Source: Vicinamibacteria bacterium (GTDB lineage Bacteria; Acidobacteriota; Vicinamibacteria; Marinacidobacterales; Marinacidobacteraceae). From it: DNA of 64,000 bases. The notes below the pieces were generated by a model, which saw only the letters and a list, made by a program, of their open reading frames with translations, was not told where the DNA came from and ran no database searches. The DNA lies in assembly GCA_963555995.3 (NCBI GenBank), contig OY821641.1, forward strand, positions 544,001-608,000. The letters are read 5' to 3'. How positions within the stretch are numbered: the stretch's first letter is position 1; every line of letters starts with the position of its first letter. Of this stretch, positions 3,695 to 27,416 are shown one piece after another. The position numbers and the translations under genes were made by a program.

Positions 3695-4176
3695 GAACCC
3701 GATAGTCCGCTGGCTTCCGCCCAGGCGACCGGATCGCCGATCCGGATTCTTCCGCCGCTCACCACCTCGCCGAACGCCCCTCCGCGCCAGTCGGGCGCCA
3801 GCGCGTCGCGCATCCGCAACGCGGCGCCGTCCATCCGTTCACAGGGCTTGGTTTCCCCGTGGATCAGGATCCGGGTTTCGCCCACCGCGAGCGTGCGCCC
3901 GATGGTCTGCCGGAAGTCCACCCCGGTCACGAGCAGGTTCGCCCGCCGGAGGGCCGGGTCCGCGTCGGGTTGACCGGCTTCGTCCGCCGCGCGCTCCCAG
4001 GCTTCCTGCGAGAGGACGGTCACCTGGCGCTTCCCCCGGGCGGGCGCCGAGTCTCGAAGCCCCTCGCCGGCGATCAGTTCTCCGTCGGACCGGGACATCA
4101 TGGGTTCCCCGCGCGCTCCCTTGGCCCAGATGGCGAGGAGGCTGCCGCCGTGGTGGTTGGTGGTTGGTTCTGCCAT
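3691..4176 (-). CDS. MOSC domain protein
   Basis: RQVTVLS, RRANLLV, ETKPCERMD, GGRIRIGD. Confidence 0.85.
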   Translation of the reverse strand: MAEPTTNHHGGSLLAIWAKGARGEPMMSRSDGELIAGEGLRDSAPARGKRQVTVLSQEAWERAADEAGQPDADPALRRANLLVTGVDFRQTIGRTLAVGETRILIHGETKPCERMDGAALRMRDALAPDWRGGAFGEVVSGGRIRIGDPVAWAEASGLSGS

Positions 4177-4272
4177 GGATGGTCCGGGAAGCGCGGCGGG
4201 ACGCCGCGCGAGCCCGGCGGAATCCTACCGCCGTTCCGCGCGTCATGATTCCGAACGGGAATCGCATCGGAA

Positions 4273-23691: not shown

Positions 23692-25278
23692 ATGTCCGTC
23701 CTGAAACACCGGAACGCGCTTTTGCTGCTTGCCGTCCTGGCCGCCGCGTGTGGTCAGGAACCGCACGGCGTCCTCATCCGCGGCGGCCTCGTATACGACG
23801 GTGGCGGTGGTGATCCCGTCACCGCCGACGTCGCGGTCACCGGCGACCGCATCACTTTCATCGGCGACGCCGGCGCCGACGGGGTGACCGCCCACGAGTC
23901 CGTGGATGCCTCCGGCCTCATCGTGGCCCCCGGGTTCATCGACATGCACGCCCATTCGCAGATCGGCGAGGACTGGGCGAAGGAGGCGCTGCCGTTCCTC
24001 TACCAGGGGATCACGACGGTGGTCCTCGGGGTGGACGGCGGCGGCTCGCCGGACGTGGCCAACACCCTGGCGGGCTGGGAAGCGAGCGGCATCGGGGTGA
24101 ACGCGCTCACCTACGTGGGTCACGGGGCGGTGCGGCGGCTCGTGCTCGGCGAGGAGAACCGGGCGCCGACCGACGAGGAACTGGACCGCATGCGGGCGCT
24201 CGTCCGGAAGGGCCTCGAGGAGGGCGCCTTCGGGCTTTCGAGCGGGCTCTTCTACATCCCGGGCAACTACGCGACCACCGAGGAGGTCATCGAGCTGGCG
24301 CGGGTGGCCGCCGAGTACCGGCCGGCCATCTATGACACCCACGACCGCGACCTCGGAGCCGCCTATCCGAGCTTCGGCTACCTGGCGTCCATCGAGGAAG
24401 CCATCCGGATCGGCGAGGAGTCCGGCACCAAGGTCATCTTCAGCCACTTCAACGCGCAGGGCGCGGCCAACTACGGCCGCGCGCCCGAAGGCGCCGCGCT
24501 GATCAACGAAGCCCGCGCCCGGGGCGTCACGGTCGCCGGCGCCCAGCACGTCTACACCGCCACCCAGTCCAGTCTCCGGGCCTACACCGTGCCCCGCTGG
24601 GCCTCCGCCGGGGGACGGGATGCCATGCTCGAACGCTTCGATGACCCGGACACCGCGCGGGTCCTCGACGAGGCCACCGCCGAGATGCTGGCCATCCGCG
24701 GCGGGGCGGACAAGATCCGGTTTTCCGATCGGCGTCCCCATCTGAACGGGCGGACGCTGGCGGATGTGGCCGAGGAGTGGGGTGTTCCGGCTCCCGAGGC
24801 GGCCCGCCGCATCCTCGCCGAGGGGAACGCGTCGGTGATGAACATCGGTCTCTACGACCCCGTGAACACCGGCTTCCTCGCCGAGCAGGACTGGATGATG
24901 ACCTGCACCGACGGCCGCGACATCGAGCCCGGCACTCCCGTGGGGCACCCGCGGGTCTACGGCGCCTTCACCAAGAAGCTGCGCGACTACGTGCTCGACG
25001 AGGGACGGATCTCGATGGCATTCGCGATCCGCAGCATGACCGGCCTCGCCGCCGAGTTCCTCGAACTCGACGACCGGGGGTTCCTGCGGGAGGGCCTGAA
25101 GGCGGATCTCGCCATCCTCGATCCGGAGCGGATCCGGGACCGGGCCACCTACGACCAGCCGCACCAGTACTCCGAGGGAACCGTGCACGTCCTGGTCAAC
25201 GGGGAGTTTGCGATCCGCGACGGCGCGCACACCGGGGCCCTGGCTGGTCGGGGTCTGCGGCCGCGCTCGGCGGAATAG
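23692..25278 (+). CDS. N-acyl-D-amino-acid deacylase-like amidohydrolase, lipoprotein
   Basis: LAAAC lipobox, PGFIDMHAHS, QGITT, GAFGLSSGLFY.PG, HPRVYGAF. Confidence 0.88.
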   Translation: MSVLKHRNALLLLAVLAAACGQEPHGVLIRGGLVYDGGGGDPVTADVAVTGDRITFIGDAGADGVTAHESVDASGLIVAPGFIDMHAHSQIGEDWAKEALPFLYQGITTVVLGVDGGGSPDVANTLAGWEASGIGVNALTYVGHGAVRRLVLGEENRAPTDEELDRMRALVRKGLEEGAFGLSSGLFYIPGNYATTEEVIELARVAAEYRPAIYDTHDRDLGAAYPSFGYLASIEEAIRIGEESGTKVIFSHFNAQGAANYGRAPEGAALINEARARGVTVAGAQHVYTATQSSLRAYTVPRWASAGGRDAMLERFDDPDTARVLDEATAEMLAIRGGADKIRFSDRRPHLNGRTLADVAEEWGVPAPEAARRILAEGNASVMNIGLYDPVNTGFLAEQDWMMTCTDGRDIEPGTPVGHPRVYGAFTKKLRDYVLDEGRISMAFAIRSMTGLAAEFLELDDRGFLREGLKADLAILDPERIRDRATYDQPHQYSEGTVHVLVNGEFAIRDGAHTGALAGRGLRPRSAE

Positions 25279-25378
25279 CGGCCCGGCGCTAACTCCCAGG
25301 CGCTGAGCCGGTACCCACTCGTCACGAATACGGCGCACCGCCGCATTCGGGTGGATGAACGTTGTGTCGGCGCGGCTC

Positions 25379-25408
25379 TTGACGGAGATTTACATATACG
25401 TAAATAAT
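25379..25408 (+). promoter_or_regulatory. sigma70-like promoter with overlapping palindromic operator
   Basis: TTGACG (25379)-N18-AATAAT (25403); near-palindrome ATTTACATATACGTAAAT at 25388-25405. Confidence 0.7.
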
Positions 25409-25547
25409 TCACGCATCAATGGGCGAACGACGAGACCCTCCGGTTGAGCCGTCGCCCGGACTTGGCTGGCCTTGCACCCGACACCCCGGCTGGCGTGTAT
25501 TGGCGCGCCCCGAGTGAGTGCATGGCGAGCCGCCGACAGGAGAACAC

Positions 25548-25994
25548 ATGATGATGACGACTTTGCCGCCCGAGAAGCGTGGCGAGGACTACAAACGTCT
25601 GGTGCGCCAAGAGGAACTGATTCTGGACGTTACTGAGGGCTTGACGGAGGCGCTGGACCGAGGCGGGGTTACGAAGGCTGAACTGGCCCGGCGCCTCGGC
25701 CGGACTCCTGGCTTCGTGTCCCAGGTGCTGCGGGGAGGGAGGAATCTGACCCTCCGGACGATTGCGGACATCGCGGGGGCACTGTCCCTTCGACCGTCGC
25801 TTCGGTTGGCCCGCGAGGCGGACGTCGTCCGCCGCGTGGACAAGCCGAGGCGGTCATGGACGCTCGATACGGCTCTGTTTGGGGTCGCCGGTGGAGGCCC
25901 AGTTCAATTCACTCAGATCCCTGCCAACGACGCCCGTGGCTGGCCAACTGCTGATCGCCTGTCGTGGGTGGATGGCTGTCGTCTGAGCGCGTGA
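25548..25994 (+). CDS. XRE HTH antitoxin (HigA-like) with C-terminal ChAD-like extension
   Basis: AGGAG RBS; TKAELARRLG.TPGFVSQVL.G.RNLTLRTIA; about 60-aa tail rich in W/F, ending CRLSA. Confidence 0.8.
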   Translation: MMMTTLPPEKRGEDYKRLVRQEELILDVTEGLTEALDRGGVTKAELARRLGRTPGFVSQVLRGGRNLTLRTIADIAGALSLRPSLRLAREADVVRRVDKPRRSWTLDTALFGVAGGGPVQFTQIPANDARGWPTADRLSWVDGCRLSA

Positions 25995-26389
25995 ACAACC
26001 CGAATCGTGCGCAAGGTGAACCTGCCGCACGAGGTGAATGGGGGACCGTCGAATGGGCCGTGGATGATTCGGGCAAGGCTCCGGCTCGCGAGTTCTTTGC
26101 CGACCTGGGGGATCCTGATGCCGCCAAGGTACAGGCGCTGTTCAACCTCCTGGCGAATACAGGGCAAATCCGGAACAGGGAGAAGTTCAAGAAGCTATGC
26201 GACATGCACGGCCAAGCGCTCTGGGAGTTCAAGAGCTTCCAGTTGAGGTTGCTGGGCGCTTTTGCTCCCGGCGGACGCTTCTTGGTAGCTCATGGCCTCC
26301 GCAAGAAGAAAAAAGCCCACTCCAGACAGGATCTTGAACGGACGGCGCGGATCCTGAACGAGCATCTGGCTCGCAACAACCAGACCTAG
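25991..26389 (+). CDS. RelE/ParE-superfamily toxin (Gp49/HigB-like)
   Basis: G.APAREF..L, KFKKL, LWEFK...R, HG.RKK; GTGA overlap with the antitoxin stop. Confidence 0.8.
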   Translation: MNNPNRAQGEPAARGEWGTVEWAVDDSGKAPAREFFADLGDPDAAKVQALFNLLANTGQIRNREKFKKLCDMHGQALWEFKSFQLRLLGAFAPGGRFLVAHGLRKKKKAHSRQDLERTARILNEHLARNNQT

Positions 26390-26399
26390 GGAACACACT

Positions 26400-26930
26400 G
26401 TGACAGCAAACGACCAGCCTTCTGGCGAACCTCAGGGGACCGGGAACACCGACGGTGGAGACGGCGTCGTGGTGAATCTCACGAGAATCATCTCCCTCGT
26501 TCAAATCACGGACATCAGGCTTCGCGAAGGGTCTTGCCGATCTTCCGTCCACCCTTCCCAGGTGGCGGAGACCATCCGGACGAAGACGGAGTCACAAACC
26601 GAAGTGCTGAAGGAACCGTCTGACGATGGATCGCTGCTGATCGGCGCGACCTTTGCGATGCGGGTGTGCAGTAACGATGAGGCGGAAGTGCTCCAGGCGG
26701 AGATCCGGGGAGCGTTCGAACTGACGTACGCTGTCCCGACTGACGAGAGCTTCTCGACCGACGAACTGAGGGGATTTGCGGAGGTCAACGCCGTGTTCAA
26801 CGCGTGGCCGTACTGGCGCGAATTGGTGCAAGCGTCGCTTGCCCGAATGTCGTTGCCTACCTTGACGGTCCCGGTGTTCCGCCTGGGGCAGGCGGACACC
26901 GCCGATCGTCTTGCGCCGGATGAGGGGTGA
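26400..26930 (+). CDS. SecB-like chaperone
   Basis: beta-rich body, then FAEVNAVFNAWPYWRELVQ..LARMSLPTLTVP, matching the SecB C-terminal PY.RE...R...P.L..P signature. Confidence 0.8.
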   Translation: MTANDQPSGEPQGTGNTDGGDGVVVNLTRIISLVQITDIRLREGSCRSSVHPSQVAETIRTKTESQTEVLKEPSDDGSLLIGATFAMRVCSNDEAEVLQAEIRGAFELTYAVPTDESFSTDELRGFAEVNAVFNAWPYWRELVQASLARMSLPTLTVPVFRLGQADTADRLAPDEG

Positions 26931-27019
26931 AGTTCCTCAGCCGATATTCTCTGGGTGTCCCCCCGACCGCGCTGCGTTGGCCTCGTGGGAAGGAACGCGT
27001 GAGACAAGTGACGCCATGA
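26927..27019 (+). pseudogene. 30-codon ORF, possible remnant of a toxin 3' end
   Basis: VKFLSRYSLGVPPTALRWPRGKERVRQVTP; overlaps the SecB stop (GTGA) and the next ATG (ATGA). Confidence 0.35.
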
Positions 27020-27327
27020 CGAAATTGAAGGACCTCAAGAAGCGCCTGATGGAGGATCCCGAATTCCGGGAGGAGTACGCGCGGGCCGATGACGAGTTCA
27101 AGCTGATCGAGGCATTGGTACGAGCCCGCACGGCCGCCAGCCTGACGCAGTCCGAACTTGCCCGGCGTCTGGGGACGACTCAGTCCGCGATCGCGCGGTT
27201 GGAGGGTGGCCGGGTGTCGCCGTCCTTCGCCACGTTGCGCCGCTATGCCGAAGCGACCGGGACACGACTGGTGGTGGGCTTGGCGTCCGCCGACGACACA
27301 CGAAGCGCGACCGCGCCGGCCCCGTAG
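27016..27327 (+). CDS. XRE HTH antitoxin-like regulator
   Basis: LMEDPEFREEY, LTQSELARRLGTTQSAIARLEGG..SPSFATL. Confidence 0.9.
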   Translation: MTKLKDLKKRLMEDPEFREEYARADDEFKLIEALVRARTAASLTQSELARRLGTTQSAIARLEGGRVSPSFATLRRYAEATGTRLVVGLASADDTRSATAPAP

Positions 27328-27416
27328 TGCTCGACCGTATCGAATCGGCGCGGGGTGCCCAGGATTGGTGCTTCCGGGTCTGACAAAATCCCGCCTCCCG
27401 TCAGGAGGATTCCTTC

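Follow-up and report, generated by a model that had tools for sequence, protein, structure and literature searches.

In all toxin-antitoxin-chaperone (TAC) systems known in 2013, the antitoxin gene lay downstream of that for the toxin, and the search of the corresponding survey required this organization (Sala et al., 2013, PMC3581621). The same paper proposed that the chaperone offsets the unfavorable toxin-first order, and in current models the TAC complex assembles co-translationally (Mets et al., 2024, 10.1101/2024.02.24.581848). Of the anti-phage TACs of E. coli (HigBAC, CmdTAC, and MqsRAC), HigBAC and CmdTAC are described to sense phage tail and capsid proteins through their chaperones (10.1101/2024.02.24.581848; PMC11618068), and for TAC chaperones outside the proteobacteria that lack a housekeeping SecB a role as export sentinel has been proposed (PMC4257090). 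In their accessible text PMC4257090, PMC11980606, and PMC6504116 describe no TAC order other than toxin-first. We found no antitoxin-first TAC in the literature; the supplements of Mets et al. and Sala et al. and subscription papers could hold one. Here, we analyzed a 64,000-nucleotide stretch (the window) from a Vicinamibacteria bacterium of the phylum Acidobacteriota (assembly GCA_963555995.3, contig OY821641.1, positions 544,001 to 608,000), in which an antitoxin, a toxin, and a chaperone gene follow each other in this order. With a probability of about 65%, we read positions 25548-26930 as an antitoxin-first, chaperone-addicted HigBAC switch and the adjacent fourth gene as the stranded antitoxin of another pair.

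The initial annotation had placed four open reading frames (ORFs) on the plus strand, with a promoter and operator of their own and the second ORF coupled to the first by a GTGA overlap, and all of this was confirmed. Folds, catalytic and tail-binding positions, antitoxin tail, promoter-operator region, and gene order were read from sequence or from structure models. The features of the three-gene module are as follows:

25379-25408, plus strand: sigma-70-like promoter, TTGACG-18-AATAAT (1 found, 0.2 expected from shuffles)
25388-25405, no strand: palindromic operator ATTTAC-N6-GTAAAT between -35 and -10
25538-25542, plus strand: Shine-Dalgarno-like AGGAG in the sequence 5' of three tandem XRE-1 ATGs
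25548-25994, plus strand: XRE-1, ATG start, 148 aa
25812-25994, plus strand: ChAD-like tail of XRE-1 (residues 89-148) with W104, F111, F121, W132, W140 and the end RLSA
25991-26389, plus strand: HigB toxin (Gp49/RelE-fold), 132 aa, with a GTG start that overlaps the XRE-1 stop as GTGA
26400-26930, plus strand: SecB-like TAC chaperone gene, 176 aa from GTG 26400 or 153 aa from GTG 26469

The second gene had been called a RelE/Gp49-like toxin, and this assignment held. The protein matches the Pfam family Gp49 (PF05973) with 25.5 bits (cut-off 23.9), and its AlphaFold2 model (predicted local distance difference test, pLDDT, 95.7) adopts a HigB fold. The best Foldseek match was S. pneumoniae HigB (6af4, E 2e-7, template modeling (TM) score 0.76), and M. 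tuberculosis HigB1 was among the top matches (TM 0.66). Its profile matched 6af3 (E 2.2e-12) and M. tuberculosis HigB1 (7nbu, E 2.8e-4); a single-sequence search of the PDB with the toxin gave nothing useful. The catalytic positions given for HigB1, which are K58, E66, R68, R77, F93, and K95 (PMC9098466), align with K68, E79, K81, R86, L103, and K105 of the window toxin, which carries leucine where HigB1 has F93. Among the family toxins R86 is kept in 55/55 and K105 in 54/55. These data point to a HigB/RelE-fold toxin with intact catalytic positions that likely cuts mRNA.

The first gene had been described as an XRE helix-turn-helix (HTH) protein. Residues 34-81 of XRE-1 match Pfam HTH_3 above cut-off (26.3 bits vs. 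23), residues 1-88 comprise an N-terminal helix and the XRE HTH, and the family profile matches HipB and HigA structures, so that XRE-1 is likely a HigA-type antitoxin. Its remaining 60 residues with five aromatics form the variable aromatic C-terminal extension by which TAC antitoxins are recognized, and three of these aromatics stand in a polar-aromatic-small context (SWT, QFT, SWV). In the 60 complete loci of the toxin-chaperone family that we collected (see below), the tails are unalignable and span 33-92 aa (median 51); they end with Ala in 52/60 and with AA or VA in 47/60 loci. In a separate protein search, an AA/VA end was observed in 72 of the 94 homologues of at least 120 aa vs. none of the 26 shorter ones, and the background in the genome is 39/1234 long ORFs. 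VA has been reported as ClpX degron of HigA1 (PMC8165232) and LAA as that of CmdA (PMC11618068). The host genome contains clpX. Orphan XRE-1 copies without toxin or chaperone match, which were found in G016 (L159), G005 (L174:1498-1730, minus strand), and G010 (L176), have lost the Ala end. The G010 orphan stands before an M20 peptidase gene, the same one that is found next to the G011 module.

For the third protein, described as SecB-like by the initial annotation, a SecB fold was predicted. The AlphaFold2 model (pLDDT 88.2, predicted TM score 0.80) retrieved the M. tuberculosis chaperone Rv1957 (5mtw) as best Foldseek match (E 1.8e-10) with SecB next, and VIA-align over 48,161 chains ranked Rv1957 first (Z 16.0, root mean square deviation 2.1 over 136 residues), followed by SecB (Z 11.1). 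The chaperone profile matched 5mtw with E 3.5e-8. The tail-binding residues given for Rv1957 (D27, R29, L154, P155, L157; PMC6377645) align with D15, R17, L129, P130, and L132 of the 153-aa form, which begins at the start codon (GTG 26469) used by most homologues; P156 of Rv1957 is replaced by Thr. R17 and P130 are invariant in all 95 aligned homologues. Pfam SecB (PF02556) matched neither the window chaperone nor any of these homologues (0/95 at E 0.01), and the gene lies inside a toxin-antitoxin operon, not on its own as a housekeeping secB would. In the host genome (93% complete), no housekeeping SecB was detected (0 PF02556 matches). The third gene is thus predicted to encode a SecB-fold chaperone of the TAC type. 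In some toxin-first operons (L003:3992-4876, P0071, P0072, P0095, P0104), the chaperone is 291-294 aa long in total and includes a C-terminally fused domain of about 140 aa, for which no Pfam match was obtained at E 1e-5; L031 also has a long open frame.

To place the gene order, chaperone loci were collected from genome contigs (at least 23), the host family, a 401-genome class sample, and metagenomes (best 80 of 108), and 128 loci were scanned with profiles of all three genes. All three genes were present in 67 of the 128 loci, and 60 were left after removal of identical chaperones; by construction of this count every complete locus contains XRE-1. The order was toxin-antitoxin-chaperone in 57 of the 60 loci, among which near-copies persist so that they are not independent counts, and antitoxin-toxin-chaperone in 3. 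In a 401-genome phylum sample ten new loci were examined, and the six complete ones were all toxin-first. Taken together, 3 of 66 complete loci are antitoxin-first, all of them in the host's family: G000 (the host genome, 3.8 Mb), G014 (same genus, with a locus identical to that in the record "Acidobacteria bacterium bin61", which we take to be a sponge symbiont bin), and G011 (same family, with a locus identical to that in a "Vicinamibacteria bacterium" record). These three genomes are the only chaperone carriers among 55 genomes of the order. The rearranged antitoxin-toxin-chaperone order proposed at the outset is therefore conserved and departs from the published TAC order, and it is rare and confined to the host's family. 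Among two-gene RelE-type pairs, differing gene orders are common.

The 12 nearest toxin-first loci encode proteins 46-78% identical to those of the window. A tree of 21 loci built from concatenated sequences places the antitoxin-first loci basally in a clade of 15 loci (support 100), and all outgroups are toxin-first. Monophyly of the three was not rejected (approximately unbiased test, p-AU 0.238), and single-gene trees disagree on their grouping. Because of the basal, unresolved placement, the toxin-first outgroups, and a single origin that is not rejected, the antitoxin-first order is probably derived, once or a few times. G016 contains a decayed fourth antitoxin-first copy in which promoter, operator, and leader are present, XRE-1 follows immediately, and toxin and chaperone are gone; its leader is homologous to that of G014 (score 66, 0/300 shuffles). 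When the window genes were compared with those of G014 and G011, the ratio of nonsynonymous to synonymous substitution rates (dN/dS) was 0.13-0.30, with dS near saturation, and by this measure the three antitoxin-first loci are under purifying selection. Between G000 and G014 the module has a dS of 1.5-2.1, whereas that of the downstream host gene is 0.62, and the two leaders are unrelated, which suggests separate arrivals or replacement. After the toxin, where toxin-first antitoxins start, all three antitoxin-first loci have a purine-rich stretch and a start codon, and the window version reads VTANDQPSG next to MTANALSERRG at the antitoxin start of L032. As a scar of the old antitoxin start this was discarded and not used, since the DNA similarity to the 5' ends of each locus's own antitoxin gene was no better than in shuffles (20, 81, and 126 of 300).

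The same promoter and palindrome head both gene orders. The operator consensus TTTACATATATGTAAA is common to antitoxin-first and toxin-first loci, and in 10/10 aligned loci of both orders, which were themselves picked by this motif, the palindrome follows TTGAC at the same position and the -35 TTGA is invariant. XRE-1 likely binds the palindrome 25388-25405. In the toxin-first loci L001-L010, L028, L031, and L032 the toxin starts only about 10-25 nt after the -10 region with no evident Shine-Dalgarno sequence, which suggests weak or leaderless toxin translation there. In the antitoxin-first loci of G000, G014, and G016 a leader of about 140-160 nt has been added, and it includes a Shine-Dalgarno sequence.

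The initial annotation had described all four genes as one A/T-richer island, and this applies to 25379-26930 only. The G+C content of this segment is 0.617 vs. a genome mean of 0.702 (sd 0.031), which is in the lowest 1.8% of 2446 genome windows, and the flanks have 0.713 and 0.695. Third-position G+C is 0.70-0.74 in the three module genes vs. a host-like 0.83 in the fourth gene (XRE-2), and for this reason we let the island proper stop at 26930. In each of three public runs, a single contig of about 1860 nt spans 25233-27090 with zero differences, and the gene order is therefore not an assembly error; the runs may include the source sample, so that the match is a check on assembly only. Two sponge-metagenome runs had a small share only, and one of them, X5, covers only the flanks and XRE-2, so that we base no habitat claim on these runs.

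Other toxins are also found in front of related chaperones. When the translations were read, chaperone-clade loci with MqsRA-like, HicAB-like, killer-type HigBA, or nucleotidyltransferase-like pairs turned out to be toxin-first too. In L015, which has the chaperone twice (1158-1568 and 3785-4198), and in L101, L109, and L128, the chaperone is preceded by a nucleotidyltransferase-like ORF (YIDGSF motif), presumably DUF6932-like, and by an XRE protein whose tail ends with Ala-Ala or Ala-Ser. This candidate toxin type is absent from those in the accessible text of the TAC papers. Toxin-first modules made up of an unassigned upstream ORF of 115-140 aa, an MqsA-like zinc-finger HTH antitoxin, and the chaperone are common in one family of the Vicinamibacterales (L038-L042, L044, L047, L048, L110, L125, L156, L193).

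In the host's family, the antitoxin gene of a toxin-first ancestor likely moved behind the promoter, and the module then inserted between an amidohydrolase and a secreted-protein gene, at a hotspot for toxin-antitoxin genes. From the characterized TACs we infer the following mechanism. XRE-1 would act on the palindrome as repressor of the operon and would also bind the toxin. Its aromatic tail would be held by a tetramer of the chaperone, so that ClpXP could not reach the C-terminal Ala end. An unfolded protein that competes for the chaperone, most likely a new phage structural protein, with about even odds vs. a host stress signal, would strip the chaperone off the tail. The antitoxin would then be lost through ClpXP or aggregation, and the cell would be halted by HigB, which would cleave mRNA in the A site of the ribosome. 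More tentative, and on balance doubtful, is the idea that this is the first functional antitoxin-first TAC, in which a chaperone-addicted phage sensor has been rewired, maybe repeatedly, to produce the labile antitoxin ahead of toxin and chaperone. With the same reserve, such a system would be limited to one bacterial family, and in the window toxin translation would be coupled to the degron codons of the antitoxin.

Several findings weigh against a working switch of this kind. The module is patchy and decays often, since the chaperone is present in only 3/55 genomes of the order and three others have kept the antitoxin only. No clade of the three antitoxin-first loci is resolved, and the tree implies two changes. 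The window tail ends with LSA, and among the 60 loci this atypical SA end occurs only in the window itself. The tail also extends to the toxin start, whereas in G014 and G011 about 180-200 nt lie between the end of the antitoxin and the conserved toxin part; the GTGA coupling is therefore particular to the window copy, and the window tail may in part be read-through and a weaker degron. As to a phage connection, we found no relatives in viral contigs (86 pattern matches), no tRNA within the window, and no integrase or phage family in 53 neighbor ORFs of 11 related loci, and the module is flanked by housekeeping genes.

The unusual end and length of the tail would suit a TAC that has relaxed to a plain antitoxin-first pair, in which the chaperone is dispensable or decaying and the tail is read-through without degron function. 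The chaperone gene no longer adjoins the antitoxin gene, the intergenic regions of the three antitoxin-first loci are mutually unrelated, and the chaperone is seen by Sala et al. (PMC3581621) as an offset for the toxin-first order. However, the chaperone is intact and has its tail-binding residues in all three loci, where it is under purifying selection, the G014 and G011 antitoxins keep AA ends (LAFAA and LTTAA), and the five aromatics, three of them in their typical context, are still present in the window tail. We consider such a relaxed pair rather unlikely.

Another explanation shares the molecular mechanism of the chaperone-addicted switch and differs in the role: a working module would respond to host proteotoxic or export stress, or would be a spreading addiction module, and would have no part in phage defense. 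The window offers no prophage or defense-island context, the genome gave no housekeeping SecB match, as in the export-sentinel proposal (PMC4257090), and the hotspot holds two unrelated toxin-antitoxin types in 5/16 genomes. On the other hand, the chaperones of E. coli HigBAC and CmdTAC are phage sensors, patchy presence suits defense genes too, and other toxin-antitoxin, nuclease, or methylase genes lie within about 2 kb of 6/11 related loci. Two distant chaperone relatives were found in phage records, one of them a SecB-like homologue in a lambdoid phage, Escherichia phage PhiR70_1 (L200:967-2489), where three "hypothetical" genes between cI and kil make up a toxin-first TAC with an MqsA antitoxin. 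Taken as a whole, this alternative appears unlikely to us, and for the antitoxin-first switch itself we give phage defense about the same odds as a role in stress or addiction.

The fourth gene had been regarded as part of the system, which would then have two antitoxins. The features concerned are the following:

26992-27019, plus strand: remnant of a lost Gp49 toxin (..ERVRQVTP-stop), about 28 bases, ATGA-coupled to XRE-2
27016-27327, plus strand: XRE-2, ATG start, 103 aa

XRE-2 matches HTH_3 with 46.2 bits and ends with TAPAP without a tail. The remnant can be aligned to the 3' ends of the Gp49 toxins, intact or split, that precede XRE-2 homologues in G025, G011, G010, and G003. At the same site, XRE-2 stands alone in G013 (94% homologue) and follows an interrupted Gp49 toxin of its own in G025 (86%), the three-gene module is present without XRE-2 in G014, and G016 has XRE-1 only; a contig of run X2 joins 25262 to 27026 and thus represents an allele with XRE-2 and without module. 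In G011, G010, and G003 the homologues follow Gp49-type toxins at other sites, the G011 toxin being apparently frameshifted as judged by translation. The G025 toxin is split by an insert of about 200 nt (L051:1791-2382, minus strand). Among the 128 loci scanned a second XRE match was seen in the window only, and among the first 23 loci collected, none has a close XRE-2 homologue behind the chaperone. Because XRE-2 occupies the site in G013 and G025 where the module is missing, is paired with a toxin of its own in other places, and is preceded by a toxin remnant in the window, we place it outside the TAC, likely as orphan HigA-type antitoxin of a separate, decayed Gp49-XRE pair. Thus, although XRE-2 is HigA-type like XRE-1 and lies 85 nt behind the chaperone gene on the same strand, without a terminator-like site in the interval, so that it may be co-transcribed, a four-gene system in which one chaperone-addicted and one independent antitoxin serve the same toxin is very improbable, since XRE-2 is tailless, occurs without the module in two congeners, and goes with a Gp49 toxin of its own in four relatives.

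The module lies in a gap that extends from the end of the amidohydrolase gene (25278) to the start of the secreted-protein gene (27417) and that is empty or smaller than about 100 nt in 11/16 genomes of the genus and filled in 5/16. This gap (25279-27416; orthologues L159-L171, L050, L007) is a toxin-antitoxin insertion hotspot. As far as the sequences tell, two unrelated toxin-antitoxin types use it, of which G000 has one intact and the other as a remnant. Neither an integrase nor a tRNA or terminal repeat was seen at the hotspot, and a repeat search gave no convincing terminal repeats. G000 contains two more Gp49 toxin genes (C1:1087426-1087710, with an XRE gene behind, and 329755-330015), and XRE-2 might act in trans on such a toxin.

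If the antitoxin-first switch is real, antitoxin-first loci and their toxin-first sisters, which are 55-78% identical and have the same operator, form matched pairs and thus a natural experiment that asks if co-translational assembly and firing threshold depend on TAC gene order. That three intact, selected loci keep chaperone and tail after the order switch argues that the chaperone was kept for sensing and not for fixing the order. Searches that require the toxin-antitoxin-chaperone order, or Pfam SecB (0/95), miss antitoxin-first loci. The parts of the module are known ones, the variant is present in three uncultured genomes only, and the two-antitoxin claim fails.

The term "undescribed" defense system, under which the locus had been listed, was too strong, since its three proteins are close relatives of those of toxin-first HigBAC loci (63/66). 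NCBIfam yielded nothing over cut-off, and PADLOC yielded HTH matches only plus a weak match to PD-T4-9_C (CmdC, E 0.063). Since the three parts proved to be those of a TAC and the order did not, we file the locus as variant and not as canonical TAC; judged by sequence and models, it is a gene-order variant of HigBAC in which only the order is new.

Among described systems, M. tuberculosis HigB1-HigA1-Rv1957 shares with the window a Gp49-type HigB, an XRE antitoxin with an Ala-ended extension, and a SecB-fold chaperone. Of the solved structures, Rv1957 is the one closest to the window chaperone (about 21% identity, Z 16.0), and the positions for tail binding and catalysis match. However, the mycobacterial tail ends with VA, whereas the window tail is unrelated in sequence and ends with SA, and the mycobacterial operon is toxin-first, whereas the window, from an acidobacterial host, has the order antitoxin-toxin-chaperone. 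HigBAC of E. coli NT1F31, likened here by description and not by sequence, also combines HigB, a HigA with a long aromatic tail, and a SecB-like chaperone, but it is reported as toxin-first, prophage-borne, and ClpX-independent with a 96-aa tail (Mets et al., 2024), whereas the window module has a 60-aa tail and a chromosomal site between housekeeping genes. S. pneumoniae HigBA (6af3/6af4), which provides the best fold match of the toxin, lacks tail and chaperone, unlike the window module; XRE-2 and its lost toxin are of this same two-gene Gp49-XRE kind. The toxin-first HigBAC-like loci of Vicinamibacterales, Binatia, and others have the same genes, promoter, and palindrome as the window, but there the toxin stands directly behind the promoter and the antitoxin adjoins the chaperone.

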